64,000 nt of DNA, from assembly GCA_963771465.1 (NCBI GenBank), contig CAVYTU010000015.1:1024001-1088000 (forward strand), given 5' to 3'. Source of the DNA: an uncultured delta proteobacterium (GTDB lineage: Bacteria; Desulfobacterota; Binatia; UBA9968). The first letter of the stretch is position 1. Each line of letters starts with the position of its first letter. Positions 1 through 52,863 of this stretch are shown one piece after another. The notes under the pieces were generated by a model. The model ran no database searches. It was not told the DNA's origin and saw nothing but the letters and a program-made list of their open reading frames with translations. A program made the translations under genes and the position numbers.

Positions 1-320
1 CCGCGCTGCCGGCGGGAAATGAAATCAGCGCCGAACCGACAACCAAAGAGACGGTCGCGCGCTCCGGCGATTCGTTTACGATCGGCTTCAAAGTCGCCAA
101 CCCAACGAGCAAAGAGATCGTGACGCGCATCGTTCATCGCGTCGAACCCAAAGAGCTGGCGCCCTATTTGGATTTGGTCGAGTGCGCGCTCTTACTGCCG
201 GTGCGAGTGGGGCCGGGTGAAGAGCAGCTGTTCAACAGCACCTATCTCGTCCGCGGCGACTTACCCGACGGTGCGAAAACGCTCAAAGTCACTTATGAGT
301 TCAAGGTTGAGAGTAACTGA
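1..320 (+). CDS. Cox11/CtaG-like copper assembly protein, 5' partial
   Basis: Frame is open from base 3: LPAGNEISAEPTTKETVARSGDSFTIGFKVANPTSKEIVTRIVHRVEPKELAPYLDLVECALLLPVRVGPGEEQLFNSTYLVRGDLPDGAKTLKVTYEF. By eye it aligns with the Cox11 Ig-like domain (N-P-[ST], V-x-P, Y-x-x-x-[IV]-E-C, P-G-E, terminal L-x-x-Y-x-F). Adjacent to SCO. Confidence 0.6.
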   Translation, partial: ALPAGNEISAEPTTKETVARSGDSFTIGFKVANPTSKEIVTRIVHRVEPKELAPYLDLVECALLLPVRVGPGEEQLFNSTYLVRGDLPDGAKTLKVTYEFKVESN

Positions 321-915
321 ACAGCTTGGCGCCGCGATGCTCGCGGTCGCTTTGCTACCATCGACAGCTCGGTCGCATATCCCGATCCCGCCCAAACAGC
401 CAAGCGAAATCGGCCGGCGCGTCGTCAAAACCGCTGTGCCCGATTTCAAACTGACCGATCAGAACGGTAAACAATTCCAACTCAGTAGCAAACGGGGAAA
501 TCTAGTTCTCACGACGTTTATCTTCACCACCTGCCCCGACGTATGTCCGCTATTTACCGCCAAGTTTGCCGCGATCCAGCGCGCCTTGGACGACAGAAAA
601 TTCAAAGACTATTGGTTGCTCAGCATCACCACCGACCCGGAGCATGACAACGCAGCGGCATTGAAGGATTACGCCAACCGGTTCAAAGCCGACTCAGCCC
701 ACTGGTCGTTTCTCACCGGCACGCGGTCGGATTTGACAAAAACGTGGAAAGCCTTTGGCGTCAACGTCACCAGGACCGAAGCTGGACAGGTTTTTCACAC
801 TGCACTCACCACTCTCATCGATCGGCGCGGCAACCGCCGAGTCGATTATTACGGTGACAAATGGCTCGACCAAGAAGTGCTCAAGGATATCCAGTGGCTG
901 AGCTCGCAAAAATGA
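307..915 (+). CDS. SCO family copper chaperone (paralog 1)
   Basis: Signal peptide-like N-terminus, PDFKLTDQNG, FIFTTCPDVCP (CxxxC), SITTDPEHD and the distal His (VFHT). Start is TTG 307 or ATG 337. Confidence 0.92.
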   Translation: MRVTEQLGAAMLAVALLPSTARSHIPIPPKQPSEIGRRVVKTAVPDFKLTDQNGKQFQLSSKRGNLVLTTFIFTTCPDVCPLFTAKFAAIQRALDDRKFKDYWLLSITTDPEHDNAAALKDYANRFKADSAHWSFLTGTRSDLTKTWKAFGVNVTRTEAGQVFHTALTTLIDRRGNRRVDYYGDKWLDQEVLKDIQWLSSQK

Positions 916-1478
916 TCCCGCGCCGAGCGTTAACGCTTTTTCTTACACTGCTATTCACTCATTGCCTTGTAACACCGGCAAGCGCAGCCCAGCGCGAGCA
1001 AGGCGTGCTGGAGATTCAAATCAAAGATCATCGCGACGCGATCGGCGATTTCGCGAAGCTAAATATCACCATCGAGAAATTCTCAATTAGCCCGAAACCA
1101 GCGTTAAAGATTTGGCAACCCAACTGGAAAGAAATCAGCTCCACATCCTCACCGGTTGACTTGACCCAATATGTAGGAAACAAAACTGCAAGAATATTTC
1201 GCGGCACGATTGATGCCGGATCGTTTGATGCATTTCACCTAAAGATCAAAACAATCGACGGACTCTTGAAGAAAAAACAGCGCTCCGTACGGGTGAAAGA
1301 CAAGACCGGTCCGGTTAAACTTTCTTTCGACATCAAACCAAAGGGCGAAACCATTTTGATTCTCGACTTCGTGGTATCGGATATGTCCGATCACCCACCG
1401 CTCGGTTATGAACTCGGAATACGGGGGCTCGAACTTTTTACCAACGGCAAGCTCGTTGAGAAAATCCCGCCGGGGTAA
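912..1478 (+). CDS. DUF4382-like exported protein
   Basis: ATGA overlap with the SCO stop; signal peptide ending ASA; the G-x-L-x-I-x-I-x-D, VDLT and terminal ILDF pattern is typical of DUF4382. Confidence 0.6.
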   Translation: MIPRRALTLFLTLLFTHCLVTPASAAQREQGVLEIQIKDHRDAIGDFAKLNITIEKFSISPKPALKIWQPNWKEISSTSSPVDLTQYVGNKTARIFRGTIDAGSFDAFHLKIKTIDGLLKKKQRSVRVKDKTGPVKLSFDIKPKGETILILDFVVSDMSDHPPLGYELGIRGLELFTNGKLVEKIPPG

Positions 1479-1700
1479 ATCATCAATCCAGAATGAAGGT
1501 TCTTTTCTGTTTTATCTTCTCCTTTTTTCCTTCCTCCTCATTCGCTTCTGGCAATATTGACCTTTACTGCCTACCCATCACACGCTAGCGTGAGAGGATC
1601 GCACCAGCATCGTTGTCAGGAGTTCATTCGCCGATCGACCTCGGTTGACTGGTTTCTCCACCGCTCGTATCTTGTAGCTTACTGAAGCTCGGCCGGCTCA

Positions 1701-3245
1701 ATGACAGTGTACAAAAATCCCGAGAACATCTCCGAATCGGCAACGCCATGGTTACTGCTCACATTGCTGTGTCTCGGGGGAGGCTTCCTTCGGTTCTACA
1801 ACTTCTGGAATTCCCCGATGTGGGTTGATGAATACGGGAGTTGGTGGATTGTATCAGCTCCTACTTGGAGTGAAGTGACCGAGCGAGCCCTGAAAACTCA
1901 GGGTCAGTCCCCTTTTTATTATGTTCTGGTCAAATTTTTCACAAATTTTTTGGGCGAAGGCCCTTTTCAGTTGCGCCTACCTTCTGTCATTTTTGGTATC
2001 GCTAGCCTCGCCCTCGTGTACCCCATAGCAATTCGAACATTTCAACACCGACAAGTAGCGCTCACGGCAGTTGTGGTATTTAGTCTTAGCGAGCGTCTCA
2101 TATGGTATTCTCAAAATGCCAGGCCCTACGCTCTTGCACTTCTTTTAACAATGCTCTCGTTTTTGTTTTTTCACTCCACCGCACATGCCAAGTCGATAAG
2201 CCACAAAATCGGATACGTGCTAGCGACCTCATTACTGATCTATGCACATTTTGTGTTCTGCTTTATCGCTATTATTCAGGTTATCTACCTAATATTCACA
2301 AAAGGTTGGCGCGAGAGCTTCTCTAAGACCTGGCTCCTTCCATTTCTCTGTATTGCATTTCTTTGCCTACCTCTTACCAGCCAATTGATCAGTTTATTTA
2401 AGCGGCGAGCTACTCTAGATTGGGTGCCCTACGTAGATCGACCAAATATAGTTGTTCAGTCTTTTTTGATTCTATTTGACCTATGTCACCCCTGGATATT
2501 TCTGGTCACGATTGCTGCCCTATTTTCCGTCGGCTTTAGACGCAATGAGCCACACGAGTTGAGCCGACGAGAAGGTCTTCGGCTTTTTTCGTGGTGGTTT
2601 ATTTTCCCCTTCGTCGTTTTTAGTACAATTCCGTCGTTGCTCGGGATAACACTTTTTCACCCCCGATATTTACTTTTCACCTATCCCGCAGCGTTTTTCC
2701 TGTTAGCTTGGTTCATGAACCATGTAAAACCAACTGATTGGCGCAGATGGATCCCAACTCTGGCATTTGCGATGTCGAGCACTATCTTTATCTTGATTCC
2801 TTCGCTCGGTAGGTCCGGTGCCTTCAGTTCCGGTTCGCGATGGGATTGGACCGACGCAGTGCGGGTGTTGGCGACATCAGCCAAACCCACAGATCTGATT
2901 ATATATCGTACTGGGTTAGTTGAGGCTGATTTGTTTGCCGCCGGTTCTCCAAAATCCTATCTACAATCCTATGTTGGCTGGCCGATAATCGCCAACCTAC
3001 CAACAGGTCACTCGTACGAGCTCGTCAGTTTACCTTTTCGATTGGGCGATCACACCCGCGCGTATTTTGTCTCCGTCGCGAAACTGGCAAGTCATTACAA
3101 TCGTGTATGGGTCATAGGTGAGGGAGAATTAACAGCACTCTTTGTCAAAACAATGATCTCAGACTATCGATTTCGCGGCGTACATAACTCCTCCCATGAG
3201 AAAGTGCAAGTCACGTTGTTGGAAGGAACTTTACTCGGTCCTTAG
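1701..3245 (+). CDS. GT-C fold membrane glycosyltransferase (GT39/ArnT/PMT-like)
   Basis: LRFY...W-x-DE, P-F-Y-Y, LRLPS and YSQ-x-ARPY motifs; many TM segments; AT-richer than the flanks. Confidence 0.85.
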   Translation: MTVYKNPENISESATPWLLLTLLCLGGGFLRFYNFWNSPMWVDEYGSWWIVSAPTWSEVTERALKTQGQSPFYYVLVKFFTNFLGEGPFQLRLPSVIFGIASLALVYPIAIRTFQHRQVALTAVVVFSLSERLIWYSQNARPYALALLLTMLSFLFFHSTAHAKSISHKIGYVLATSLLIYAHFVFCFIAIIQVIYLIFTKGWRESFSKTWLLPFLCIAFLCLPLTSQLISLFKRRATLDWVPYVDRPNIVVQSFLILFDLCHPWIFLVTIAALFSVGFRRNEPHELSRREGLRLFSWWFIFPFVVFSTIPSLLGITLFHPRYLLFTYPAAFFLLAWFMNHVKPTDWRRWIPTLAFAMSSTIFILIPSLGRSGAFSSGSRWDWTDAVRVLATSAKPTDLIIYRTGLVEADLFAAGSPKSYLQSYVGWPIIANLPTGHSYELVSLPFRLGDHTRAYFVSVAKLASHYNRVWVIGEGELTALFVKTMISDYRFRGVHNSSHEKVQVTLLEGTLLGP

Positions 3246-3493
3246 GCACATCAATGCATAATTTTCCATCACAATTCTCTGCTTCAAGATGACCTAAAAA
3301 AGAGCAGCGATTACAAACAACGCGTTTCCAGAAACAAGGGATGACACCATGGAAACTCCGATGTCGACCTGTAAAGCAATTTAAGCAATAAGCTTGGCGC
3401 GTGCTCGAGAACGTTGAAAGTTACCTAGAGCGAATGGGCATCATTCTCCGAGAGATTGTGCTTGCTACAAAAGTGGTACCCAATCGAGAGCCC

Positions 3494-3735
3494 GTCTCTA
3501 CACAAACCGTAAAATTCTAGAATGCCTTCTGTTCAGATTTTTCCCGATCATGGATGCTTCAAATAACCTATTTCTATTATTCAGCGCCGCGTCGTCGTCC
3601 TGGAGATCGTGCTCGGAACGGCGCTTCGGCTGAAGTTTGAACCACAACCTCTGCTTGGGCCGTGGAATGACAACGGCCCGGACGGGCTAAAACAGTACGG
3701 TGCGGTGCCAGATTTTAGCTTGATGGAGCGGCGCG
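3494..3735 (+). pseudogene. Degenerate duplicate of the leader and 5' end of the second SCO gene (5145-5390)
   Basis: 3580-3730 aligns with 5231-5383 (identical run GTGGAATGACAACGGCCCGGACGGGCTAAA); the copy has indels and is truncated. Confidence 0.88.
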
Positions 3736-3737
3736 TT

Positions 3738-3930
3738 GCATGCAATTGAGAATATTTCCCAACGTGTAAACCCCCGATAAGTGCCAATCCGAGAATGTAC
3801 CCACTCTGAAGGTTTGCCCAAAGGACCAGGAGAATTGGAAACAGGGAGTAGTGGAATTTCTTACTCTCGGTTTGATGGGACTCGATAAATTGTCTAGCGA
3901 GCCAGTGAACAAAGAAGTCAGCGGTGGCTT
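3738..3930 (-). pseudogene. Fragment of a membrane protein with an LWANL-x-x-G motif (GT-C-like family)
   Basis: Minus strand reads LFPILLVLWANLQSGYILGLALIG, resembling the LWANLHGGF motif of uncharacterised polytopic membrane proteins; no proper start or end. Confidence 0.55.
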
Positions 3931-4012
3931 GAACTCTACACAAACGGTACGCTAATCGAATTTCCGTCGATATATGTTTTGCAAGAACAGAACGATCGAC
4001 CAGTGCGCACAG

Positions 4013-4984
4013 CTAGTTTTTTACAACGCGAATAATCATGATGGGATTATAGGATTCATCGCCAAACGCTAAACTCCATTCACTCGAACAGTTCAGACAT
4101 TGATCACCACGTGAAGTGAACCAAAGCAGCACTTCATGATATGAGACCGAAGTACAAGCATCGCTATCGTTAACCCAGTATTGCTCATAGTTCGCGTCTA
4201 ACTTGATAAAGTGCAGACGTGATGGCCCACCGCCAAACCGAGAGCCCAGAGAGCGCAAAAAGCGCACCTGGCGGGATTGAAGGTTGTAGAACGCTGAGGA
4301 GTCGGCGATCAAGGTCGTCGCTTTCTTGAGCTTGCCCCAAATGTTGAAATCGCTGTAGGGCCGCACACGATAGCCTTGTGCGGCGTAACGATCGACGTCG
4401 TTGCCGACGAGAAGAAGAATATGTCCACCCGGTTTAACGACACGTCGCATTTCCAGGAGCGCTTTTTCAGGGTTGGGAATATGTTCCAGCACCCAGATCG
4501 ACCACAGCGCGTCAAATGAATTATCTGGAAACGGCATATTGGTCGCCGACGCTTCGACAAATGGTTTATGAAAAAAATGACGCGCGGTTGCCGAAATATC
4601 CAGAGCCGTGTAATCATCGACGATATCTTGGAGAAGGCCGCTTCCAGCGCCAACTTCCAAAACTTTTTTGTCTTTCAATCCAAACTTCGCAACAAACTCA
4701 GCGACGGTTGCCGGAATCTTCGCCCTGAAAGCTGCATCCCGCGCAATGTCGATATAGAATTTATCCTGTGCCGATACGGGCACAGTCGAGGATGGTGGGA
4801 TTGTGTCCTTGGTCAGCTTGGATTCGCTGGAATAGGCCTGCTCATAAAAGCGACGAGGCTCCGAGTTCAACGATTCATCACCTTGTGGATCGATACTCCA
4901 GGGAAAGGTTATCGCGGTTGCGATGGCACTGGCGAGTACTAGGCATGTATAGCCAATTATCAAAAAACACCTGATTGGTTTCAT
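4013..4984 (-). CDS. Class I SAM-dependent methyltransferase with an N-terminal membrane anchor
   Basis: VLEVGAGSG motif I, LDIS, MPFPDNSFD, VLEHIPNPEKALLEMRRVVKPGG; hydrophobic N-terminus. Confidence 0.88.
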   Translation of the reverse strand: MKPIRCFLIIGYTCLVLASAIATAITFPWSIDPQGDESLNSEPRRFYEQAYSSESKLTKDTIPPSSTVPVSAQDKFYIDIARDAAFRAKIPATVAEFVAKFGLKDKKVLEVGAGSGLLQDIVDDYTALDISATARHFFHKPFVEASATNMPFPDNSFDALWSIWVLEHIPNPEKALLEMRRVVKPGGHILLLVGNDVDRYAAQGYRVRPYSDFNIWGKLKKATTLIADSSAFYNLQSRQVRFLRSLGSRFGGGPSRLHFIKLDANYEQYWVNDSDACTSVSYHEVLLWFTSRGDQCLNCSSEWSLAFGDESYNPIMIIRVVKN

Positions 4985-5203
4985 ATAATCGTCACCGCGG
5001 GTTGACTAATCTTGCGCGAAAAAGCTGTAGCAGAGATTAGATCTCGCATCCCTCGGATCATCGTACTGAATTCTAACAGATGATGAGCCACGACGTCAGC
5101 AAAAATACTCCCACCGGAGAACTAGACACAGCAATCTTTCCATCGACTCTACACAAACGCTTAATTTCCCGATAAAATCCCGTCTGGCTAATCTGCTCCG
5201 CTC

Positions 5204-5848
5204 ATGAACGATTCAAAACGTTTCTTGTTATTCAGCACCGCGGTCGTCGTCCTGGGGATCGTGCTCGGCACGGCGCTTTGGTTGAAGCTCGAACCGCAGC
5301 GTCAACTCGGGGCGTGGAATGACAACGGCCCGGACGGGCTAAAGCAGTACGGCGCGGTGCCGGAATTTTCCTTGATGGAGCGGAGCGGCGCCGGCGTCGA
5401 TCTTGCCCAGTTGCGTGGCAAGATCTGGGTTGCTGACTTTATCTACACGACTTGCACCGACACCTGTCCGTTGCAAACCGGCATGATGGCAAGGTTGCAA
5501 GAAGAGTACGCCTCCAAGCCCGATGTCCATTTAGTTTCGGTCACCGTCGATCCCGAACGTGACACGCCCCAGACTTTGTCGCTCTACGCCGCAAAGCATG
5601 GAGCGGATGCCAAGCGCTGGTTATTTTTAACCGGACAACGAGATCGCATCATGAATCTGATTCGCGACGGTTTTCATTTAAGCGTGGCAACCTTGCCCAA
5701 CAGCGCCGAGCCAACCGGCATGATCCCGCACAGCCCGCGCTTTGTTCTGATCGACAAAGAGGCGCGTATCCGTGGCTATTATGACAGCCGCGAACTCGAA
5801 GCGTTTGTCCGGCTGAAAAATGACATTGACACGTTATTGAAAAGTTAA
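5204..5848 (+). CDS. SCO family copper chaperone (paralog 2, membrane anchored)
   Basis: N-terminal TM, FIYTTCTDTCP (CxxxC), VTVDPERDTP, IPHSPRFVLID (His ligand). Confidence 0.93.
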   Translation: MNDSKRFLLFSTAVVVLGIVLGTALWLKLEPQRQLGAWNDNGPDGLKQYGAVPEFSLMERSGAGVDLAQLRGKIWVADFIYTTCTDTCPLQTGMMARLQEEYASKPDVHLVSVTVDPERDTPQTLSLYAAKHGADAKRWLFLTGQRDRIMNLIRDGFHLSVATLPNSAEPTGMIPHSPRFVLIDKEARIRGYYDSRELEAFVRLKNDIDTLLKS

Positions 5849-5863
5849 AAGGAGCCTGTCCCG

Positions 5864-6739
5864 ATGGCGCAAGAGACCAGAAGCAAGAAAGGTAAGCAAC
5901 CGGCGGCAAAAGGATTATTACGCGCCGGACCGAATTGGCCGCTGTTTATTCTTGCTCTGCTCGGCATGGTGTTGTCCGGCTACCTCACTTTTACCGCTTG
6001 GCAAGGCAGGCTCGTCGCCTTTTGCACCGAAGGCGCCGGCTGCGACCTCGTGCTTAACAGCCGTTGGTCGACGCTGTTCGGCATGCCGACATCTTTTTGG
6101 GGTTTTCTCACCTATGGTTTGCTCGCCGCGGTGGCATGGAACCGTTATGCCGATAATCAGTGGCGCTGGGCTTGGGTCATTTCGCTCTTCGGCTTGCTGT
6201 TCAGTTCCTATTTGACAGCTATTTCATTTTTTGAGCTCAAGGCCGCTTGTCCCTATTGCCTCGCGTCGCTCGGCATTATGGCGGCGATCTTCGTCATGAC
6301 AACCCTGCAACGTCCGGCGAATCTACCCAAATTTTCTTGGGGGCCATGGCTCGGCAAATCACTCGGCGCGGCGGCCGCAGTGATCATCGCGCTTCATCTC
6401 TATTTCGCCGGGTATTGGGGCGACGCGCCGGGACCGGAAGATCCCTGGGTCAGGAATCTGGCTGAACATTTGACCCGGTCAGACGTCAAATTCTACGGCG
6501 CCTCATGGTGCCCGCATTGCCAAGATCAGAAAAAATTGTTCGGCAGCTCTGTGAACCGAATACCATATATCGAATGTAGCCCAGGCGGGCCCAATACGCC
6601 CCAAGCAGCGGAATGTAAGACAAAGGGTATTCAGACCTATCCCACTTGGATCGTTAACGGTCAGCGGCATACCGGCGTGTTACCCCTCGATACCTTGGCC
6701 CAACTGAGCAAATTCAACTACCAGGGAGGAAAGCCGTAA
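5864..6739 (+). CDS. Vitamin K epoxide reductase (VKOR) domain fused to a thioredoxin-like domain
   Basis: Loop Cys pair C-TEGAG-C followed by VLNSRWS, membrane CPYC motif, then C-terminal FYGASWCPHC...IEC...C...IQTYPTWIVNG. Confidence 0.93.
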   Translation: MAQETRSKKGKQPAAKGLLRAGPNWPLFILALLGMVLSGYLTFTAWQGRLVAFCTEGAGCDLVLNSRWSTLFGMPTSFWGFLTYGLLAAVAWNRYADNQWRWAWVISLFGLLFSSYLTAISFFELKAACPYCLASLGIMAAIFVMTTLQRPANLPKFSWGPWLGKSLGAAAAVIIALHLYFAGYWGDAPGPEDPWVRNLAEHLTRSDVKFYGASWCPHCQDQKKLFGSSVNRIPYIECSPGGPNTPQAAECKTKGIQTYPTWIVNGQRHTGVLPLDTLAQLSKFNYQGGKP

Positions 6740-7206
6740 TGCACGTGTCGTCGGGGAAACAAATATTAATCTTCGCTCTCGTCCTGAGTTGGAGTGCGAT
6801 GGCAATCCAGACAAATGCCAATGCCGATCCGTCGAAGTATCCGGAGTTTGCCCAGCAAACTCTGCCGGAAAACGTTACGCCGGCTTTTATCAACGTCGAC
6901 GAATTGGTCGAACTGGTGAAGGCCGGCACCAAGCCGATGATCATCGATGTGCGCACGGACGAAGAGTTCAAAGAAGCGCATATCCTAGGCGCCATGTCCG
7001 CGCCGCTCGCGGAATTCAAAAATTTCGTCAAAGACATTCCTCGCGATCGGCCGGTCGCGCTCTATTGAGCCTGTCCCCATCACCTGGCCAGTTTGGCCTA
7101 TGGCATTCTTTATGAAAACGGTTACCGCAACATGAAAGTGCTCGACGAAGGCATCAAAGGTTGGCACGAAAAACGCTACCCGATGGCCGGAACCCTGTTC
7201 CGTTAA
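6739..7206 (+). CDS. Exported rhodanese-domain selenoprotein (Sec at UGA 7066-7068, YUACP), 155 aa
   Basis: Signal peptide and IIDVR...AHILGA rhodanese motifs. The UGA falls at the active-site Cys position (VALY-U). The frame continues ACPHHLASLAYGILYENGYRNMKVLDEGIKGWHEKRYPMAGTLFR to TAA 7204-7206, 9 nt before queC. Confidence 0.85.
7077..7103 (+). promoter_or_regulatory. Candidate bacterial SECIS element
   Basis: Lower stem CCAT/ATGG, upper stem GGCCA/TGGCC, apical loop GUU starting 22 nt after the UGA with G in the first loop position. Confidence 0.65.
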
Positions 7207-7215
7207 GCGTGACCG

Positions 7216-7908
7216 ATGGCCGGCACAGACGCTGTTATCCTTTTGAGCGGCGGCATCGATTCCACTACTGCCGCGGCCATCGCTATACAACAAGGCTATC
7301 AACTGCACGCTCTGACCTTTTGCTATGGCCAACGCCACCAACGAGAAATCGAGTCGGCCAAGCGCGTTGCAAGTTTTCTACCGGCCAAAACGCACCGCGT
7401 CATCGAATTCGATCTGAGGTCGATCGGCGGCTCCGCGCTGACCGATCAAATCGCGGTACCCAAAGGACGGAATGACCAGGAGATCGCCGACGGCATTCCG
7501 ATCACTTACGTGCCGGCACGCAACACGATTTTTTTATCCTTCGGTTTGGCGCTGGCGGAGCGCGTCGGCGCGGCGGATATTTTTTTTGGCGCCAACCAAC
7601 TCGACTACAGCGGCTATCCGGACTGCCGCGAAGAATATATCGCGGCTTTCGAAAACATGGCCAACCTTGCCACCCAAGCCGGAGTCGAAGGCAAGACCCG
7701 ACTAAAAATCCACGCGCCGTTGCTCCAGATGACTAAAGCGGACATCATTAACAAAGGCTTGGAACTCGGCCTCGATTACGGCCTCACGTGGAGCTGCTAC
7801 GATCCGGGAAATAATGGAATAGCCTGCGGCCTGTGCGACAGTTGCCGGCTGCGGCTCAAGGGATTTCAAGCAGCCGGCCGCGTCGATCCGATCGCTTACG
7901 CGCGCTAA
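7216..7908 (+). CDS. queC: 7-cyano-7-deazaguanine synthase
   Basis: LSGGIDSTT, YGQRH, TYVPARN, SGYPDCR, TWSCY...CGLCDSC. Confidence 0.97.
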   Translation: MAGTDAVILLSGGIDSTTAAAIAIQQGYQLHALTFCYGQRHQREIESAKRVASFLPAKTHRVIEFDLRSIGGSALTDQIAVPKGRNDQEIADGIPITYVPARNTIFLSFGLALAERVGAADIFFGANQLDYSGYPDCREEYIAAFENMANLATQAGVEGKTRLKIHAPLLQMTKADIINKGLELGLDYGLTWSCYDPGNNGIACGLCDSCRLRLKGFQAAGRVDPIAYAR

Positions 7909-7916
7909 GTCTAAAT

Positions 7917-8804
7917 ATGTTGCCCGCGCCGTTCACGCCGCATTTTCTCACCCAGTTGGAAACTCTCCGGCTGCGTACCCGAAAGGAATTTCTCGGCAGC
8001 CATACGGGCAGTTATTCCTCACCGCGCCGCGGCACAAGTTTGGAGTTCGCCGACTACCGCCGCTATGCGCCAGGTGACGATCTGCGTTATCTCGACTGGG
8101 GCATCTACGCGCGCACCGACCGGCTCTATGTGAAAGTTTACCGCGAAGAAGTCGACCTGTTCGCCTACGTCTTTATCGACGCCAGCGCGTCGATGGCGTT
8201 CCCATCGCGCGAGCAAAAGTTCCTGCCGGCCTCCCACGTTGCTCTGGCGCTTTCGTATGTCATTCTGGCGAATCACGATCACGTCAAGTTGCATCTGCTG
8301 CAGGATCGCAGCAGCGCCTCGCCGTTTTATCGTGGCCGGCGACGTATGGCGGATTGCGTCAATTTCGCGACCGGGGCCAATGTCGGCGGCGCGCTCGACT
8401 TAGCCACATCCTTAAGCGACCACTTGCAACGCTTGCGTCGGCCGGGGAAAGCGATCTTGATCTCAGATTTTTTAATGCCGGCCGCTGCCTACCAGAAGGG
8501 ACTCAATCTGCTGCGCGCGTTTAATCTCGATATCGCCGCGATTCAAGTGCTGACGCGCCAGGAAGTCGATCCCGATTTCCCCGCCGGTAGTTTGGCGCTG
8601 ATCGACAGCGAGAGCCAACGAGAAATTCGCTATCAATGGAACGGCACCGCACGGCGCGATTATCAAACGCGTCTGGCCCATCACAATCTCGAGCTCAAAA
8701 GTTTCTGCCATCAAAGCGGCATTCACTACTCGCTCTACGTCAACGATCGCGACTTGAGCGATTTTATTTTCGCCACCCTGCCGGCCATCGGACTATTTAA
8801 ATAA
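7917..8804 (+). CDS. DUF58 domain protein (MoxR-associated)
   Basis: G-x-S-x-EFADYRRYAPGDDLRYLDW, DASASM, LISDF; ATG at 7917. Confidence 0.92.
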   Translation: MLPAPFTPHFLTQLETLRLRTRKEFLGSHTGSYSSPRRGTSLEFADYRRYAPGDDLRYLDWGIYARTDRLYVKVYREEVDLFAYVFIDASASMAFPSREQKFLPASHVALALSYVILANHDHVKLHLLQDRSSASPFYRGRRRMADCVNFATGANVGGALDLATSLSDHLQRLRRPGKAILISDFLMPAAAYQKGLNLLRAFNLDIAAIQVLTRQEVDPDFPAGSLALIDSESQREIRYQWNGTARRDYQTRLAHHNLELKSFCHQSGIHYSLYVNDRDLSDFIFATLPAIGLFK

Positions 8805-38549: not shown

Positions 38550-40034
38550 CTATTTCACGAAGAAGCGAAGCGATTGATTGGTGTATTGAACTAATGGCCC
38601 GAAGTAAATGCCGAACACCACCGTCAGCACGGCGAGCGGCAGTAGGAGGGTGAAATCATTGGCGCCGACGGAGATTGTCTTATCTTCCGGATTAGGTGAG
38701 TCCAGGAACATGGTTTTGACGATTTTCGCGTAGTAGTACAGCGACACGACGCTGTTGAGCGCCGCCACGACGGCCAGCGCCGCAAAGGCGCCGCCTTGTT
38801 TCAAGACAGCGGAGAACAAGAAAAATTTGCCTATGAAGCCGGCGAACGGCGGCAAGCCGGTGAGCGAGAAAAGAAAAACTGCAAAGCATACGGCTGGCAC
38901 GATGGCGCCGCGCCAGGCCAAGCCGCGATAGTTATCGATGTCCTCATCGCCGGTGACGTTGGCGATCATACCGACGACGAGAAAGGCGCCGACGTTCATG
39001 ATCAGGTAAACGACGGCATAGAAGAGAACGGCGGCCAAGCCTTCGTTGGTGAGAATCGCCAGGCCCATCATCATGTAGCCGGCGTGAGCGATGCCGGAAT
39101 AGGCGAGCATGCGCTTGACGTTTCTCTGATTGAGCGCGCACAGATTGCCGACGGTCATGGTGATCATGCTCAATATTAGGAGCACATGCGGCCATTCGAC
39201 GCCGGCGAGAGTCGCCCAATCGCCGCCGGGCAACATGCGTGAGACACCGGGATAAAAAAAGCGGATCATGATCGCCATCCCCGCAGCGTTGGAAGCCACG
39301 GACAAAAACGCGGTGAACGGCGTCGGCGCGCCCTGATAGACGTCAGGCGACCACATGTGAAACGGCACGAAGACGATCTTGTAGCCGAATCCGGCCATGA
39401 TGAAGACAAAGGCCATGAACATCGCGGCGGCGTTGTAGCCTTTTTCGCCGAGCGCGGTGTGAATCGCGGCGTAGTCTAAGCTGCCGGTCATGCCGAAGAT
39501 CCAGCTCATGCCGTAAATCATCGTTCCCGAAGCGACGCCGCCATAGATCAGGTATTTCAGCGCGGCTTCCGTGGAGCGCCGATTGCGCGGCAAGAAGCCG
39601 GTGAGCACGTAGGACATGAGACTGACCAATTCCAACGACAGATAGGCCATCAGCAGATTGCTCGCCGAGGCCATGAAAAACATCCCCAAAGCGCAGGTCA
39701 ACAGCAGCGTGTAGAACTCGCCCTGGTGCACCAGCTTGATCTCATTGCTGCCGAGCGCCATCCAGATGCAGAGAATGGTCGCCGCCATGGTAAAAACTTT
39801 GAAGAACAAACTGAAGTTGTCGAGCACCATCATGCGGTGAAACATCCAGCCCGGCGCCGCGCTATACAAGTCGAACGTCGCGATCAGCGCGCCGGCGCAA
39901 CCGACCACGGCGATCAGCGCCAGGCTGCGCTTATTCTGCGCGATCAGATCGAGCACGATCAACAGCAAGATCGTCACCGAGAGAATCGCCTCGGGGAGAA
40001 AAAAAGTCAGGCTGGCGACGTTTTTCAGGTCCAT
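38550..40034 (-). CDS. nuoN: NADH-quinone oxidoreductase subunit N
   Basis: EAALKYL, PFHMWSPDVYQGAPTP, KRMLAYS-x-IAH, G-x-PP-x-AGF-x-GK. Confidence 0.96.
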   Translation of the reverse strand: MDLKNVASLTFFLPEAILSVTILLLIVLDLIAQNKRSLALIAVVGCAGALIATFDLYSAAPGWMFHRMMVLDNFSLFFKVFTMAATILCIWMALGSNEIKLVHQGEFYTLLLTCALGMFFMASASNLLMAYLSLELVSLMSYVLTGFLPRNRRSTEAALKYLIYGGVASGTMIYGMSWIFGMTGSLDYAAIHTALGEKGYNAAAMFMAFVFIMAGFGYKIVFVPFHMWSPDVYQGAPTPFTAFLSVASNAAGMAIMIRFFYPGVSRMLPGGDWATLAGVEWPHVLLILSMITMTVGNLCALNQRNVKRMLAYSGIAHAGYMMMGLAILTNEGLAAVLFYAVVYLIMNVGAFLVVGMIANVTGDEDIDNYRGLAWRGAIVPAVCFAVFLFSLTGLPPFAGFIGKFFLFSAVLKQGGAFAALAVVAALNSVVSLYYYAKIVKTMFLDSPNPEDKTISVGANDFTLLLPLAVLTVVFGIYFGPLVQYTNQSLRFFVK

Positions 40035-40045
40035 GACTTCGTGGC

Positions 40046-41563
40046 TTAACTATGGAGATGTGGAATCACGATCTGATTGAGCTGGTCCAACGACGCGCGC
40101 AACAGATCCAAAACCACCTGCGGATAGATGCCGACCAGGATCACGATCACACCCAGCGGCACTAACGTGAAAATTTCCCGGCCGTTGATCTCCGCCATAT
40201 TTAGGTATTTCTCATTGGGTGGACCGAGATAGACGCGCTGAATGGTCCAGAGTAAATAGCCGGCCGTTAGTATCACGCCGCTGGCGCCGAGGATCGTCAG
40301 CACCGGATATTTCTGCCAAACGCCGAGTAAGACTAAAACCTCCGATATAAAACCGGAGAGTCCCGGCAACCCCATGGACGCGAAGAAAGCCAACGCGGTT
40401 ACCCCTGTATACACCGGCATGATCGCCGCCAAGCCGCCGAAGCCATCGATCTCGCGATGATGCGCGCGGTCGTAAACCACGCCGACGAGAAGAAAGAGCA
40501 TGCCGGTGATCGTGCCGTGGTTGAACATCTGCAACACCGCGCCGTTGAGTCCCTGGGTCGTGAAGCTCGCCATGCCGAGCATGACGTAGCCCATATGGCT
40601 GACGCTGGAGTAAGCGACCAGTTTTTTCAAATCCTTTTGCGCCATGGCGCAAAGCGCGCCGTAAATAATATTCCACGCGCCAAGCGCGCCGAGAAACCAG
40701 TAGGCTAAATCCGCGGTGGCGACCGGCAACATCGGGAAATTGACGCGAAGAATGCCGTAGGTGCCCATCTTCAAGAGCACACCGGCGAGGATGACCGAAA
40801 TCGCCGTCGGTGCTTCGACGTGGGCGTCCGGCAGCCAGGTGTGAAACGGAAAGGCAGGAATTTTAATGGCGAAACCGATGAATAGCGCCATCCAGATCAC
40901 ATGCTGGAAGCCCCAGCCCCAGACGTTGAACGGCCACATCGCCAGCGGCTGTGTGCCGTATCTATTCGCCTGCGCCATCAGCACGGTCATGTCAAAGGTA
41001 TGCGGCTCCACGGTAAAATACAGGGCGAGAATCGCCAGCAGCATCAATACGCTGCCAAACAGCGTGTAGAGAAAAAACTTGATCGCCGCGTATTCGCGCC
41101 GCGGTCCGCCCCAGATGCCGATGAGAAAATACATCGGCAACAGCATGACTTCCCAAAAAATATAAAAAAGGAAAAAATCTAGAGCGCAAAACACGCCCAT
41201 CATGCCGGCGTCGAGCATGAGAAACAGTGCGAAATAACCCTTGACCGCTTTTTCGATGCCGAAGGAGGCGAAAATACAGATGAAACTCAAAAGCGCGGTG
41301 AGCAACACCATGGAAATACTGAGACCGTCGATACCCATGAAGTAACTAATATTGTAAGCGGGAATCCACTGATACTTCTCCATGAATTGAAAGCCAGCTT
41401 TGCTGCGGTCGAAATTGTTGAACAGCCAAATCGCCATCAGGAGCGGCGGCACCGTCACCCCGGCGGAAAACCAACGGATCAGCTTGGCGTTGTTCGGCAG
41501 CGCCAAAACGATCGCCGCTCCCGCCAGCGGGATGAAAGTCATGTAGGTGAGCACGTTTTCCAT
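40046..41563 (-). CDS. nuoM: NADH-quinone oxidoreductase subunit M
   Basis: GIDGLS, FWE, AAIKFFLYT, PFHTWLPDAHVEAPT, LLKMG-x-YG. Confidence 0.97.
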   Translation of the reverse strand: MENVLTYMTFIPLAGAAIVLALPNNAKLIRWFSAGVTVPPLLMAIWLFNNFDRSKAGFQFMEKYQWIPAYNISYFMGIDGLSISMVLLTALLSFICIFASFGIEKAVKGYFALFLMLDAGMMGVFCALDFFLFYIFWEVMLLPMYFLIGIWGGPRREYAAIKFFLYTLFGSVLMLLAILALYFTVEPHTFDMTVLMAQANRYGTQPLAMWPFNVWGWGFQHVIWMALFIGFAIKIPAFPFHTWLPDAHVEAPTAISVILAGVLLKMGTYGILRVNFPMLPVATADLAYWFLGALGAWNIIYGALCAMAQKDLKKLVAYSSVSHMGYVMLGMASFTTQGLNGAVLQMFNHGTITGMLFLLVGVVYDRAHHREIDGFGGLAAIMPVYTGVTALAFFASMGLPGLSGFISEVLVLLGVWQKYPVLTILGASGVILTAGYLLWTIQRVYLGPPNEKYLNMAEINGREIFTLVPLGVIVILVGIYPQVVLDLLRASLDQLNQIVIPHLHS

Positions 41564-41584
41564 CTTGTCGATTCTCCCTGCCGA

Positions 41585-43627
41585 TCAACTCCAGTAACGA
41601 ACTTTGACGTAAATGGCCAATGCCATCGCCATCAGAATGCCGTAGAGATAGCTATTGATGTTGCCGGTCTGCACCCGGCGAACCTTGTTGCCGACCCAAA
41701 AAGTGAAGTTGGCCACCGCATTGACGATGCCATCAATGATGTAGGCGTCGAACAAACCGTTCAGCCAGGACGCGAAACGCGTCAGAGCCGCGGCGCCATT
41801 GACGATGCCGTCGACGATGTAGGCGTCGAATGCCGACCAGAAGCGCGCTAGAACCAATGTCCCGTTGACGAACACCGCTTGATAAAACTCGTCAAAATAC
41901 CACTTACGGTCGAAGACTCGATAGAAGAAACCGCCGGCGAGATTGCTAAATAGCTCTGGCGAGAGCGACTCGCGCCGATACATGAGATAGGCGAGGAAGA
42001 CGCCGAACGCCGCGACGGTCACCGAAACCGCCATCAGGCCCCATTCCATCGCATGCGACGCGTGCCCTTCTGCGTGGGCGTGAATCACCGGCTCGAGCCA
42101 ATGCGCAAATTGGCTGCCGCCGAGCACGCCGGGCAAACCGATCAAGCCAGCGAAGATCGCGCCGATAGCCAGAATCACCAGCGGCATCGTCATCACTGAC
42201 GGCGACTCATGCAAATGTTCTTGGGTGTGATGGTCGGCGCGGCACTTGCCGTAAAAAGTCATGAACAATTGGCGAAACATATAAAACGCCGTCATGCCCG
42301 CGCCGCACAGCGCCAAAAACCACACGAGCTTGTTGCCGTGCTCACTGGTGAACGCCAGCCAAAGAATTTCATCCTTGGAGAAAAAACCGGCGAATGGCGG
42401 AAAGCCGGCGATGGCGAGCACGGAAATGAAAAACGTAGAGAAGGTCAACGGCATCCACTGCTTGAGTCCGCCCATTTTGCGCATGTCCTGTTCATGATGC
42501 ATGGCGTGGATCACGCTGCCGGCGCCGAGGAAGAGACAAGCTTTGAAGAATGCGTGGGTCATTAAGTGAAACACAGCCGCAGCGTAACCGCCAACGCCGA
42601 TCCCGATGAACATGTAGCCGAGTTGGCTGACGGTGGAGTAAGCGAGAACTTTTTTGATATCGTTCTGCGTCAGCGCGATGGTCGCCGCCAGTAACGCGGT
42701 GGCAACACCCACGAATGCGATGAGATGCATTGTCGCCGGCGCCATGGAGAAGAAAACATTCATGCGCGCCGTCATATAAACGCCGGCAGTAACCATGGTC
42801 GCCGCATGGATGAGCGCGCTGACGGGCGTCGGGCCGGCCATGGCGTCGGGCAGCCAAACGAAAAGCGGAATCTGCGCCGACTTGCCAGTCGCGCCGACAA
42901 AAAGGAAAAGCGTCGCCAGGGTGACAACTGAATAACCCCAAAGGGTCATGTTCTGAATCGACGGCGCCCACTTGACCATCTCGCGGAACGTCAAAGAGCC
43001 GTGTCCCTGGGCATCGAGCGACCAGAACAGCAGAAACATGCCGAGCACGAAACCGAAGTCGCCGACCCGGTTGACGATGAAAGCTTTGTTGCCGGCGCGC
43101 GCGTTGGCGTGATCATGATACCAAAAGCCGATCAGAGCGTAGGAACACAAACCGACGCCTTCCCAACCGACGAAGAGCACGAGCAAGCTATCGCCCAACA
43201 CCAGCGTCAGCATCGCCGCGGTGAAGAGATTTAAATACGCGAAGAAGCGCCAGAAGGCTTTGTCGTCATGCATGTAGCCGGTGGCGTAGATATGAATCAA
43301 CCCGCCGATGCCGGTGACGACGAGAATCATCACCGCCGATAAGGGATCGATCAAGAATGCCATGTCGACTTTGAGCGAGCCGAGATGGATCCACGTGTAA
43401 AGATTATCGATCAGGAAGCGCTTTTCCGGCGCGAGATTTTTAAGTATGAGCAACGCATTGAGCGAAAGTCCGAACGCGACGATCACCGGCGCACAGGCAA
43501 TCACGCCGATGGCGCCTTTGCCCATGCTTTTTTGAATTTTTGCGCCGAGCAATCCATTGATGATCGCGCCAAGCAGCGGCAAGAACACGATCCAACGGAT
43601 AAAATCTGTCTGTATCGGACTTTCCAT
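41585..43627 (-). CDS. nuoL: NADH-quinone oxidoreductase subunit L
   Basis: GWEGVG, NRVGD, GKSAQ-x-PL-x-x-WLPDAMAGPTPVSALIHAATMV, HAFFKA. Confidence 0.97.
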   Translation of the reverse strand: MESPIQTDFIRWIVFLPLLGAIINGLLGAKIQKSMGKGAIGVIACAPVIVAFGLSLNALLILKNLAPEKRFLIDNLYTWIHLGSLKVDMAFLIDPLSAVMILVVTGIGGLIHIYATGYMHDDKAFWRFFAYLNLFTAAMLTLVLGDSLLVLFVGWEGVGLCSYALIGFWYHDHANARAGNKAFIVNRVGDFGFVLGMFLLFWSLDAQGHGSLTFREMVKWAPSIQNMTLWGYSVVTLATLFLFVGATGKSAQIPLFVWLPDAMAGPTPVSALIHAATMVTAGVYMTARMNVFFSMAPATMHLIAFVGVATALLAATIALTQNDIKKVLAYSTVSQLGYMFIGIGVGGYAAAVFHLMTHAFFKACLFLGAGSVIHAMHHEQDMRKMGGLKQWMPLTFSTFFISVLAIAGFPPFAGFFSKDEILWLAFTSEHGNKLVWFLALCGAGMTAFYMFRQLFMTFYGKCRADHHTQEHLHESPSVMTMPLVILAIGAIFAGLIGLPGVLGGSQFAHWLEPVIHAHAEGHASHAMEWGLMAVSVTVAAFGVFLAYLMYRRESLSPELFSNLAGGFFYRVFDRKWYFDEFYQAVFVNGTLVLARFWSAFDAYIVDGIVNGAAALTRFASWLNGLFDAYIIDGIVNAVANFTFWVGNKVRRVQTGNINSYLYGILMAMALAIYVKVRYWS

Positions 43628-43664
43628 CAACAAGCCTTGAACTTTTGGACCCTTGAACCTTGAA

Positions 43665-43976
43665 TTAGTCTTTTAATGTTTCCGCCGCTTCGACATCGAT
43701 GGTGTGGAAGAGCTGGAAAATCGCCAAGACGATCGCCAAGCCCACCGCAGCCTCCGCCGCCGCCAACATGATGACGAAGATCGCGTAAATTTGACCGGCA
43801 TGATTGCCGCTGCCGAAATGGGAAAACGCGACGTAATTAATATTGGCGCTGTTGAGAATCAGCTCGACGCCCATCAGCACGCTGATGGCGTTACGCCGGG
43901 TCAGCACCGTGAACATACCCAGTGAAAAAAGAATCGCGCCGATGATGAGATAGGAAGAGAGCTCGTTGGGCGACAT
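43665..43976 (-). CDS. nuoK: NADH-quinone oxidoreductase subunit K
   Basis: RRN-x-I-x-x-LM-x-VEL-x-LN, AAAEAAVGLAI. Confidence 0.96.
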   Translation of the reverse strand: MSPNELSSYLIIGAILFSLGMFTVLTRRNAISVLMGVELILNSANINYVAFSHFGSGNHAGQIYAIFVIMLAAAEAAVGLAIVLAIFQLFHTIDVEAAETLKD

Positions 43977-43978
43977 GA

Positions 43979-44479
43979 CTACTCTTTGATCTCCTTGCGC
44001 GACAGCACCACGGCGCCGATCATGGCACCCAGCAACACCAACGAGGCGAGCTCGAAGGGCAAAAGATACTCGTACAAAAACGAATCGCCGATTTTGGCGG
44101 TGGTGGCGGCATAGACGACTTCCTTGGCTTTAACCCAAGGCGTCTCTCTTATCGTCTGAATCAGCAGATAAATAAACACGCCGATCACCAGTAACGCCGG
44201 CACTGTTCCCGCGGCGCGATTGGTGATCTCGACATCGGTGATCCGGTGCGTCAGCATGACCGCGAACAGAATCAAAACCAGAATGCCGCCGACGTAGATC
44301 AGCAGCTGCACCGCGGCGACAAAATCGGCGCCGAGAAAAACATAGATGCCGGCCACGCCCATGAACGTTCCCAGGAGCGAAAACGCCGAGTAAATGATGT
44401 TGCGCGAGAACGCCACCATGCCGGCGGAAACCACCGTGACGAGACAGATTAGATAAAAAACCGCCGTCGAGACATCCAT
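43979..44479 (-). CDS. nuoJ: NADH-quinone oxidoreductase subunit J
   Basis: Q-x-x-IYVG-x-I-x-VL-x-LF-x-VML, Y-x-LPFE-x-x-S. Confidence 0.95.
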   Translation of the reverse strand: MDVSTAVFYLICLVTVVSAGMVAFSRNIIYSAFSLLGTFMGVAGIYVFLGADFVAAVQLLIYVGGILVLILFAVMLTHRITDVEITNRAAGTVPALLVIGVFIYLLIQTIRETPWVKAKEVVYAATTAKIGDSFLYEYLLPFELASLVLLGAMIGAVVLSRKEIKE

Positions 44480-44598
44480 AACTTTCTCTAGTTTGTGGGA
44501 TCGCGGAAAAAGAAAACTTTTGGATCAAATACCGGAAGATCCAAAATGGATCAAGAGGCGTGGCTATTCAATCGCCGGTCGCCCCTCATCAGGTGTGC

Positions 44599-45156
44599 CT
44601 ATTTCTCCTCGGCCGCCCCTCCATCCGGCGTGGCGAACTCATCCATGTACGCCTGGCCGATTTCCACCTTGGTGATCAACTTTGGCTCGGTTTCGCCGCC
44701 CTTCTTGGGTTTGTACAGATTCGCCGCCTGCGGCGCGAAGTGGCGCACCAGCCCGGCGGGATTGTAGCTCGCTCCTTCGAATTCCGTGGAATGGCGGATC
44801 GCGCCGGTCGGGCAAGACTCGGAACAGATGCCGCAGTACATGCACTTGCAGACATCGATATCGAAGTGGGTAAAGTAGCGCTGTTTGGTCTCCTTGTTCA
44901 TGTCGATGCCGATGGTGATGCAGGTGATCGGACAATCGCGTTCACACGCCAAGCAGCCGGTGCAGATGTCTAAATCGACTTCGAGGATACCACGGTAACG
45001 ATGCGGCAGAGTCTCTTGGATCGGCACCGGAATCTTGTCCGGATACTGGATCGTCATCGGCCGGCGCATCAAATGTGAAAAGGTGATCGACATTCCCTCG
45101 AACGTTGACGACACCGTGTCTTTGATATCTCTTATGTAACTCGCAACAACTCCCAT
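44599..45156 (-). CDS. nuoI: NADH-quinone oxidoreductase subunit I
   Basis: T-x-QYP, RYRG, two CxxCxxCxxxCP motifs. Confidence 0.95.
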   Translation of the reverse strand: MGVVASYIRDIKDTVSSTFEGMSITFSHLMRRPMTIQYPDKIPVPIQETLPHRYRGILEVDLDICTGCLACERDCPITCITIGIDMNKETKQRYFTHFDIDVCKCMYCGICSESCPTGAIRHSTEFEGASYNPAGLVRHFAPQAANLYKPKKGGETEPKLITKVEIGQAYMDEFATPDGGAAEEK

Positions 45157-45169
45157 AGAACCTCAGCAA

Positions 45170-46357: not shown

Positions 46358-46376
46358 GATCGATTTCTAATTCTGG

Positions 46377-47513: not shown

Positions 47514-47523
47514 GGCAATCCTA

Positions 47524-48030: not shown

Positions 48031-48045
48031 CGTCGCTAATTTTTC

Positions 48046-48552: not shown

Positions 48553-48577
48553 GGCATTCCTCCAAAAGTCCCCTATA

Positions 48578-52784: not shown

Positions 52785-52863
52785 GTCGTGATCGTGTTCG
52801 TGTTTCGTGATCGTCCGGATTCCGAACACCAGCCACGAACACGAGTCTGATCACGAACACGAC
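52785..52863. repeat. TCGTG x4 / CACGA x4 imperfect palindrome
   Basis: GTCGTGATCGTGTTCGTGTTTCGTG ... CACGAACACGAGTCTGATCACGAACACGAC. Confidence 0.75.

Follow-up and report, generated by a model that had tools for sequence, protein, structure and literature searches.

A conserved string of copper-chaperone-like, VKOR-thioredoxin and selenocysteine rhodanese genes in an uncultured Binatia bacterium

Why should the gene for an exported rhodanese with an in-frame TGA codon overlap the gene for a quinone-linked disulfide oxidase, downstream of genes related to copper chaperones? The question is raised by the first 8 kb of a 64,000-nt stretch of DNA from an uncultured delta proteobacterium of the Binatia (assembly GCA_963771465.1, contig CAVYTU010000015.1, positions 1,024,001 to 1,088,000; G000:C15:1024001-1088000), referred to here as the window, whose host genome comprises 6.9 Mb in 19 contigs with 99.4% completeness. 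A first-pass annotation, made from the letters alone, had proposed that six co-oriented genes form a dedicated envelope module, linking copper-site maturation or detoxification to a quinone-coupled relay that ends in a selenoenzyme. The gene combination is real and conserved, and the explanation that we favour, at about an even chance, is a co-oriented envelope metal-handling string in which copper chaperones are accompanied by VKOR fused to a thioredoxin-like domain (VKOR-Trx) and by a selenocysteine (Sec)-containing rhodanese redox protein. Its function would be the handling of copper coupled to thiol/selenol redox.

Gene identities were taken from a listing of open reading frames (ORFs) and from Pfam/NCBIfam scans. 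The features at the centre of the argument are the following.

3-320, + strand: 3' end of the gene for C11c, with a Cox11-like C-terminal domain (PF04442, 36.2 bits against a cut-off of 25)
217/295-915, + strand: SCO1, Sco/SenC-type, with CPDVC and a downstream His (PF02630, 92 bits)
912-1478, + strand: DUF4382 protein, exported, all-beta (PF14321, 37.2 bits against a cut-off of 25)
5204-5848, + strand: SCO2, membrane-anchored Sco/SenC-type, with CTDTC and a downstream His (97 bits)
5864-6739, + strand: VKOR fused to a thioredoxin-like domain (93.7 bits)
6739-7206, + strand: exported single-domain rhodanese of 155 aa, Sec at residue 110 (one in-frame TGA)
7066-7068, + strand: the in-frame TGA, very probably a Sec codon (conservation, Cys homologs)
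7086-7098, + strand: SECIS-like hairpin GGCCA-GUU-UGGCC, with its loop G 25 nt past the U of UGA

Conservation of the gene string

Judging the translations by eye, each of the six co-oriented genes encodes a protein that either begins with a signal peptide or is anchored in the membrane at its N-terminus, as the first-pass annotation had proposed, and the couplings it described are also present: an ATGA overlap at 912-915, a TAATG overlap at 6737-6741, and gaps of 15 nt (5849-5863) and 9 nt (7207-7215). The span of 1..7908 that it gave to the system holds for the six genes and fails at its end, which takes in QueC, not one of the six. C11c is cut by the edge of the window, its complete ORF (G000:C15:1023433-1024320, 295 aa) starting 568 nt ahead of it, and the true start of SCO1 is likely the ATG at 295 or that at 337.

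In order to follow the string beyond the window, we compared 61 related genomes (including the unpublished G005 and G035, on which none of the conclusions rests) and 80 public-genome loci, two sets that overlap and whose members are mostly labelled as Candidatus Binatia or Deltaproteobacteria bacterium metagenome-assembled genomes. The rhodanese reads Y-TGA-[A/Q/E]-C-P-[H/R]-H in 60 of the 80 public loci (the Sec form) and YCACPHH in 19 (the Cys form), with one degenerate locus. Among assessable loci, VKOR-Trx lies directly upstream of the Sec-form gene in 53 of 55 and an SCO gene within 1.5 kb upstream in 47 of 48, counts taken mostly over kin, which measure conservation and not independent recurrences. 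The two exceptions to VKOR-Trx adjacency are L114, where the rhodanese stands alone, and L120 of genus g11, where VKOR is absent and a weak Trx-like ORF, SCO and Sec-rhodanese are adjacent. Near the 19 Cys-form loci, no SCO or VKOR-Trx was found with the queries used.

Within the genus of the window, the order SCO2/VKOR-Trx/rhodanese/QueC/DUF58 is near-universal; among 29 short loci VKOR-Trx lies beside the rhodanese in 27, is missing in one, and one contig ends early. The ten loci of family f3, whose rhodaneses are 39-48% identical to that of the window, all carry VKOR-Trx directly before the rhodanese, with SCO further upstream in 8, DUF4382 in 7 and a Cox11-like gene in 5. QueC adjoins the Sec-form gene in 40 of 58 assessable loci and in none of family f3. 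The synteny of SCO, VKOR-Trx and Sec-rhodanese thus extends well past close kin, into at least two families. We note that in one genome of the genus (L119, G020:C45:151408-152749) VKOR-Trx and rhodanese are found in pieces, with a full-length VKOR-Trx match carrying two TGA and two TAG codons, which may reflect decay or an assembly error.

VKOR-Trx itself carries its full redox set of loop Cys pair, membrane CxxC and Trx CxxC. Indeed, loop Cys 54 and 60, CPYC (129-132), WCPHC (216-219), and Cys 238 and 251 are invariant in 18 sequences.

The selenocysteine codon and the rhodanese loop

When read through the TGA, the rhodanese gene encodes 155 aa with the motif LYUACPHHLASLAY. Of its 120 best database relatives, 119 are at most 111 aa long and stop at or before the TGA; the single 154-aa entry reads W at this position, which suggests that its gene caller took TGA as W. 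An ortholog interrupted by exactly this one in-frame TGA is present in 43 of the 61 related genomes, at 39-81% identity, and the frame past the TGA is open and conserved for 45 codons in all 43. In a codon table counted from 29 rows, the codons after the TGA vary synonymously while their amino acids are kept (four codons each for Ala +1 and Gly +28), indicating that the frame beyond the TGA is translated.

Four positions depart from this pattern: codons +7 (GCC) and +8 (AGT) are each invariant in 25 of 25 rows, and the codons for Leu +6 and Leu +9 are always CTG or TTG. The frozen bases form the 5-bp hairpin at 7086-7098 with its GUU loop. Bacterial selenocysteine insertion sequences (SECIS), as known from E. 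coli fdhF and from bSECISearch work, are hairpins placed soon after the UGA with G or U in the apical loop. In 22 sequences the hairpin cells are paired at 97.3%, compared with 19-57% when the partner strand is slid, and four f3 sequences, which have Ser-Arg where the others have Ala-Ser, can form another hairpin of 7 bp, capped by a GUCC loop, very near this position (one was folded). The host genome encodes tRNA-Sec, selA, selB and selD, all over their cut-offs, and the last three lie in a row at G000:C14:197319-201637, selD itself carrying one in-frame TGA.

Some results speak against the hairpin as a SECIS element and leave room for a genuine stop, after which the downstream frame would be untranslated and the gene would encode a truncated 109-aa rhodanese or be a pseudogene. 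Gene callers do terminate the protein at the TGA. The stability of the hairpin is close to that of shuffles (z 0.28, 0.08, 0.93 and -0.87), no compensatory change is found within it in the 22 sequences, RNAalifold on 22 sequences chooses other weak pairs, and an Rfam scan of positions 1-8000 at E<=1 returned no SECIS family, only a chance sRNA match. A stop is nevertheless very improbable, in the face of a synonymously varying 45-codon frame kept down to 39% identity, of Cys in place of the TGA in 19 loci, and of a complete Sec machinery; moreover, a 109-aa product would miss the entire active-site loop. We therefore regard it as very probable that the TGA is read as Sec. The selenoprotein call of the first-pass annotation is upheld, with the codon moved to 7066-7068. 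Two further matches in the host genome with one in-frame TGA each, a second rhodanese-like one (G000:C14:230137-230469) and a weak SCO/peroxiredoxin-like one (G000:C14:823370-823570), could represent additional selenoproteins.

The PF00581 domain is matched, and the model of the protein shows the rhodanese fold (predicted local distance difference test, pLDDT, 87.7), with U aligned to the catalytic Cys of the solved rhodaneses 6mxv and 3tp9. In sulfurtransferase rhodaneses the active-site loop is C-x4-R/T, with a basic residue cradling the persulfide. The loop of the window protein is U-A-C-P-H-H-L; alignment pairs the Arg of 6mxv and 3tp9 with the Leu that follows [H/R]-H and opens a one-residue gap in the chain, and the basic loop residue is missing. 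In the G036 ortholog, which keeps the same gene order (L037:9913-10383), U and the neighbouring C are both gone (Y-G-N-R-P-R-H) and the remainder is kept; this copy may be inactivated or repurposed.

The Cys-form loci are labelled Methylomirabilota, Rokubacteria, Kofleriaceae, Myxococcales and WOR-3, with a few more general labels. At L144:6239-7360 (Kofleriaceae-labelled), the only such locus that was translated and scanned, the Cys form YCACPHH belongs to a fusion protein with two cytochrome c domains and a His-rich tail at its end, and several other Kofleriaceae- or Myxococcales-labelled loci among L139-L155 have similar flanks and His-rich tails. The rhodanese domain is thus tied to a respiratory electron carrier in both settings, through the cytochrome c fusion in one and the overlap with a quinone-linked Trx gene in the other. 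The His pair and the His-rich tails hint at a metal. The Cys-form homolog P0124 reached only generic rhodanese clusters in the ESM Atlas, and in a profile search of 1.84 billion representatives multi-rhodanese repeat proteins dominated, so that the family was not delimited; this search returned a few single-domain variants (YCACPNH, YCACPHE and YCATPHY).

The proposed copper link and the surroundings of the string

C11c is membrane-anchored and consists of an unnamed N-terminal domain of about 170 aa ahead of the Cox11-like C-terminal domain. It is the third of three paralogs, all in this string, which carry the only Pfam Cox11 domains of the host genome; C11b, like C11c, scores above the PF04442 cut-off (33.1 bits), and C11a falls below it (20.8 bits). 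Searches of the ESM Atlas with the N-terminal domain gave NTF2-like leads below 0.9, to be taken as leads only. We aligned 16 Cox11-like rows and dropped two with mis-extracted frames (f3_L157 and f3_L165). Of the 14 usable rows, nine carry IIQCFCF (five from f3, three from f2 and one from g7), and five, namely the three paralogs of the window's string, L115 and L116, keep the first Cys only. The Cox11-like domain named by the first-pass annotation therefore stands, and the copper-binding CFCF pair does not: the host paralogs read VECALLL (C11c, a single Cys), VECGLLT and VQCGFLL, with the second Cys of CFCF missing in all three. From what is reported of yeast Cox11 mutants, Cu(I) binding in the manner of Cox11 is not expected without it.

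A stronger tie to copper comes from the sister family. In the five f3 rows the Cox11-like protein runs into DUF4382 without a stop, with PF04442 scores of 88-91 bits for the fusions; the 512-aa fusion ORF of L038 scores 88.4 bits for PF04442 and 24.2 bits, just below the cut-off of 25, for PF14321. This gene fusion ties DUF4382 to a Cox11-type protein, and since the fused orthologs bear CFCF, it strengthens the copper link that had been proposed. DUF4382 carries invariant KDHR, D-x2-DHP and YEL motifs and has no Cys in its mature form. Its model is an all-beta sandwich (pLDDT 83.7) for which Foldseek found no match in the PDB at E<=0.001; in VIA-align the highest Z, 8.1, was to Bacteroides fimbrial/transthyretin-like sandwiches, and MbnP reached 5.5, values in the range that the tool regards as common arrangements. 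As for literature on DUF4382, only an archaeal glycoproteomics paper turned up.

Both SCO proteins have complete motifs, CPDVC...FHTA in SCO1 and CTDTC...PHSP in SCO2. SCO2 is orthologous to the SCO found ahead of VKOR-Trx in each of the three families, and SCO1 is a genus-specific extra copy that only loci of genus g1 have between C11c and DUF4382; about seven places in the host genome are SCO-like. From these comparisons, the block appears to have later expanded in this genus to three one-Cys Cox11-like paralogs and a second SCO, and to have been split by an insertion between DUF4382 and SCO2.

The following features surround or interrupt the six genes.

1701-3245, + strand: PMT_2/GT39-like glycosyltransferase in the insert (ORF and profile scans)
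3493-3745, + strand: decayed duplicate of the SCO2 upstream region and about its first 60 codons (145-nt core 86% identical; spacing 1651-1652)
4013-4984, - strand: class I S-adenosylmethionine (SAM) methyltransferase in the insert (ORF and profile scan)
5171-5191, + strand: relic copy of 21 nt from the 3' end of DUF4382 (17 bases agree with 1458-1478), lying 12 nt ahead of SCO2
7216-7908, + strand: QueC (247 bits)
downstream of QueC, + strand: DUF58 and BatA genes (Pfam/NCBIfam scans)

The insert at about 1.5-5.1 kb, which the first-pass annotation had set aside, is borne out by base composition, with a GC content of 0.44-0.49 inside and 0.53-0.58 on both sides. In tblastn searches the glycosyltransferase matched none of 110 related loci, and the methyltransferase was found at the equivalent position in two relatives only (L056 and L057). 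In L048, L049, L051 and L052, SCO2 follows DUF4382 directly. This direct junction in relatives, together with the two relics, indicates that the ancestral DUF4382/SCO2 junction was broken by an insertion with duplication.

Upstream of the window, a same-strand string with short gaps encodes NikR (171.7 bits), a TonB-dependent receptor, a major facilitator superfamily (MFS) transporter, TonB, two His-rich exported ORFs (138 and 131 aa), a BNR-repeat protein and a ResA/TlpA-like thioredoxin (NikR to ResA/TlpA-like: L003:9015-16732, equal to G000:C15:1013015-1020732), and then C11a, C11b, an exported-looking methyltransferase and C11c. A cytochrome c gene and a third SCO gene are oriented divergently to NikR. 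The 131-aa ORF matches DUF2946, a family that accompanies copper-regulated TonB receptors, at E 0.072 only, a lead and not a finding. The importer differs between lineages: in f2 and f3 an ABC-3 (Znu/Mnt/Tro-type) permease precedes the Cox11-DUF4382 gene (L038:4514-5326), and in this genus the receptor and the MFS transporter take its place. The methyltransferase-like ORF between the Cox11-like paralogs (class I, L003:18762-19379) begins with a hydrophobic leader and is kept at this position across many loci of the genus; export would be unusual for a SAM enzyme.

Four studies provide RNA-library contigs that match the rhodanese gene without a single difference. An X15 contig (6683-7104) spans the VKOR-Trx/rhodanese junction and the TGA, an X16 contig (7009-7293) the TGA and the rhodanese/QueC junction, and a further X15 contig (7187-7471) the latter junction again; X16, X17 and X20 cover 6782-7293 only. 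Since the X15 contigs extend over the full 8 kb, insert and intergenic DNA included, carry-over of DNA is possible and counts against reading these contigs as transcripts. They lend weak support to expression of the gene, with QueC on the same transcript, and cannot prove a single transcript, nor can X15 show an operon.

The remainder of the window holds housekeeping genes, LarC, a complex I (nuo) operon (38550-48964, minus strand) and a nonribosomal peptide synthetase module C-A-T-TE (60741-63980, at the window end).

Readings of the locus and related systems

In the reading that we favour, the window holds the downstream half of a long co-oriented string, whose core, conserved in relatives, would be (NikR + metal importer)-[N-domain + Cox11-type]-DUF4382-SCO-VKOR-Trx-(Sec-rhodanese). 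The Cox11-type and SCO proteins would act as periplasm-facing copper chaperones with DUF4382 working alongside, and VKOR-Trx, the single quinone-linked disulfide oxidase, would be co-expressed with them and control whether their metal-binding cysteines are oxidized or reduced. The rhodanese-fold protein, its translation presumably coupled to that of VKOR-Trx, would be exported with its catalytic Cys replaced by Sec, in a U-x-C pair before P-[H/R]-H, and would cycle between selenol/thiol and selenenylsulfide (U110-C112), giving electrons to or taking them from the Trx domain and thus the quinone pool. Its targets may be the cysteines of the SCO and Cox11-type proteins, or a soft metal such as Cu(I) directly. 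We infer copper as the metal, each protein-protein step, the direction of electron flow and the substrate of the rhodanese.

Several observations weigh against this reading, beyond the kinship of the counted loci. VKOR-Trx is the sole VKOR of the host genome, in which no DsbB was found at its 99.4% completeness, and it occurs in 52 of the 61 relatives, always as a single intact copy, versus 43 of 61 for the Sec-rhodanese; it is thus probably a general quinone-linked disulfide oxidase, which weakens the idea of a dedicated module. The rest of the block also persists in genomes with no rhodanese match, where 9 of 10 loci keep [Cox11-like and/or DUF4382]-SCO-VKOR-Trx with an ABC-3 permease before it. 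This weakens the proposal of a relay ending in a selenoenzyme, and gene order shows the rhodanese to be a lineage-variable accessory gene at the end of a conserved block. QueC, a cytoplasmic queuosine enzyme that is probably co-transcribed with the rhodanese and is outside the envelope module, is spaced as tightly as the redox genes, so that spacing is weak evidence of shared function and no longer serves as an argument for a module. In addition, the rhodanese lies apart from VKOR-Trx in G034 and alone in L114, and Cys-form homologs occur elsewhere in unrelated contexts. All this would suit a conserved neighbourhood without a dedicated relay, made of a housekeeping VKOR-Trx, SCO/Cox11-like proteins for oxidase assembly, and an independent PspE-like rhodanese acting as sulfur/selenium transferase or persulfide carrier. 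We consider this account possible and still rather doubtful: it sits uneasily with the placement of the Sec form directly after VKOR-Trx in 53 of 55 loci from two families, with the g11 locus in which the Sec-rhodanese follows SCO even without VKOR, with the overlap of the rhodanese start and the VKOR-Trx stop, and with a U-x-C-P-[H/R]-H loop lacking the Arg of sulfurtransferase loops. The one degenerate ortholog has lost both U and C, which also fits a two-residue site for redox or metal better than a single persulfide carrier.

The metal is a separate matter. The first-pass annotation had seen no copper-enzyme client in the window and had allowed that one may lie upstream; the absence from the window stands, and no cuproenzyme was found in the 12 kb scanned upstream either. 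This counts against the favoured reading, as does the SCO beside one of the two intact COX1 genes; these lie at a distance, on C15 and C12, and it is the C15 gene that has this SCO of its own. The string could instead handle nickel or another non-copper metal, a NikR-controlled importer feeding downstream proteins that traffic or buffer it in the periplasm. NikR, over its cut-off and directly upstream of the receptor, points to nickel, and it is present further upstream of the block in all three f2 loci examined; the His-rich periplasmic ORFs, the His, Asp and Glu (and not Cys or Met) among the invariant residues of DUF4382, and the loss of the second copper Cys from the Cox11-like paralogs of this genus agree with it. 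A LarC-type nickel insertion protein (PF01969, 452.8 bits) is encoded inside the window at 52807-54027, 45 kb from the NikR-led string, and shows that the organism uses nickel. Yet the SCO proteins retain the whole CxxxC+His motif and the f2, f3 and g7 orthologs keep CFCF, both of which point to copper, and the NikR/importer genes and the chaperone genes may be separate adjacent units; we know of no nickel role for Sco or Cox11. A string devoted to nickel or another non-copper metal is accordingly quite unlikely. As to the metal itself, we lean towards copper with modest confidence and hold nickel to be improbable.

A bolder and rather improbable extension of the favoured reading is that [U/C]-x-C-P-H-H rhodaneses form a new class of rhodanese-fold metal/thiol oxidoreductases wired to the respiratory chain, through selenol and VKOR-Trx here and through a cytochrome c fusion with a His-rich, metal-capturing tail in Kofleriaceae-labelled genomes. 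They would set the Cu(II)/Cu(I) state, or the redox state of chaperone cysteines, during SCO/Cox11-type loading, with DUF4382 as a third chaperone. To our knowledge, no function has been described for the cytochrome c-fused Cys form.

The author of the first-pass annotation had known of no pathway described with this combination, and our literature search, which covered main texts and not supplements, returned no description of a VKOR-Trx/SCO/Sec-rhodanese context. Searches of the same scope on Binatota selenocysteine and on bacterial VKOR with Sco copper chaperones gave nothing relevant, and those on VKOR and rhodanese in the periplasm gave only general review coverage. The string suggests that the cell manages three things together, namely the thiols of periplasmic copper chaperones, its quinone-linked disulfide oxidase and a selenol-bearing protein, and, together with the Cox11-DUF4382 fusion, it provides a first functional lead for DUF4382. 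If the relay exists, it would link selenium use to copper-enzyme maturation, a link that our literature search did not encounter, and it can be tested in vitro, because all its parts are small soluble domains. Gene callers halve the rhodanese in hundreds of soil metagenome entries, and annotation therefore overlooks an exported selenoprotein that is common in an abundant soil lineage without cultured members.

Cox11/CtaG and Sco1/SenC/PrrC are copper chaperones of heme-copper oxidases, and the CFCF pair is required for copper binding by Cox11. The proteins described here resemble them in their Pfam matches, in the CxxxC+His of the SCO proteins and in the CFCF of the f2, f3 and g7 orthologs. 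Unlike Cox11/CtaG genes, those of the window do not lie beside a cox operon, and the host proteins have an extra N-terminal domain and one motif Cys, with a DUF4382 fusion in f3. In Bradyrhizobium, a TlpA-type protein is said to be the reductant of ScoI, and a ResA/TlpA-like gene is likewise found upstream in the window's string. Bacterial VKOR with a fused thioredoxin-like domain substitutes for DsbB/DsbA, with structure and mechanism known from Synechococcus. The window protein shares the four VKOR cysteines and the Trx CxxC with this group (PF07884) and differs from it in context, being encoded behind SCO in an operon-like string where some of the lineage also has an overlapping Sec-rhodanese gene.

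One functional parallel to the rhodanese is PspE of E. coli, a periplasmic rhodanese with a single Cys, which reportedly can feed disulfide-bond formation with DsbC. PspE is also small and exported and interacts with the periplasmic thiol-redox network; it differs in its single Cys and ordinary sulfurtransferase loop, and matches the window protein weakly (30.1 bits against a cut-off of 102). The CxC of CCS, the SOD1 copper chaperone, serves both Cu(I) ligation and disulfide exchange, and Mia40 has a CPC motif. With these vicinal Cys-x-Cys proteins the analogy is one of mechanism only, their folds and compartments being unrelated to those of the window rhodanese.

Among selenoproteins, rhodaneses are an established kind. 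In the portions of the sources available to us, a Sargasso Sea table lists a 'rhodanese-related sulfurtransferase' (PMC1088965), a UxU rhodanese is reported from an Olavius symbiont (PMC1976440), and reviews of 2022 and 2026 give the forms UxxS, UxxG, CxU and UxxxxU (PMC9312934, PMC13188914). UxC is not among the five rhodanese forms of the 2026 table as available; elsewhere in that review the label is confined to two other proteins, one thioredoxin-like and one an efflux transporter, and the strings 'Binat', 'VKOR' and 'SCO1' do not occur in the accessible text (PMC13188914). The closest family is NF041203 ('rhodanese_LYCAU'), which from the same portions corresponds to 'rhodanese-like form 3, CxU' (PMC13188914) and 'COG0607 form 2' (PMC9312934). 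Like the window protein, its members are single-domain rhodanese (seleno)proteins with a vicinal C/U-x-C/U pair after Leu-Tyr, and it is the best NCBIfam match of the window rhodanese, yet at 56.7 bits against a cut-off of 115. Compared with the C-x-U of that family, the pair is reversed in the window rhodanese, with Sec first, at the catalytic position, Cys third and an invariant P-[H/R]-H next, and the protein is exported; it appears to be a new Sec-position form of a known kind of selenoprotein, at the end of a block made of known types of parts.

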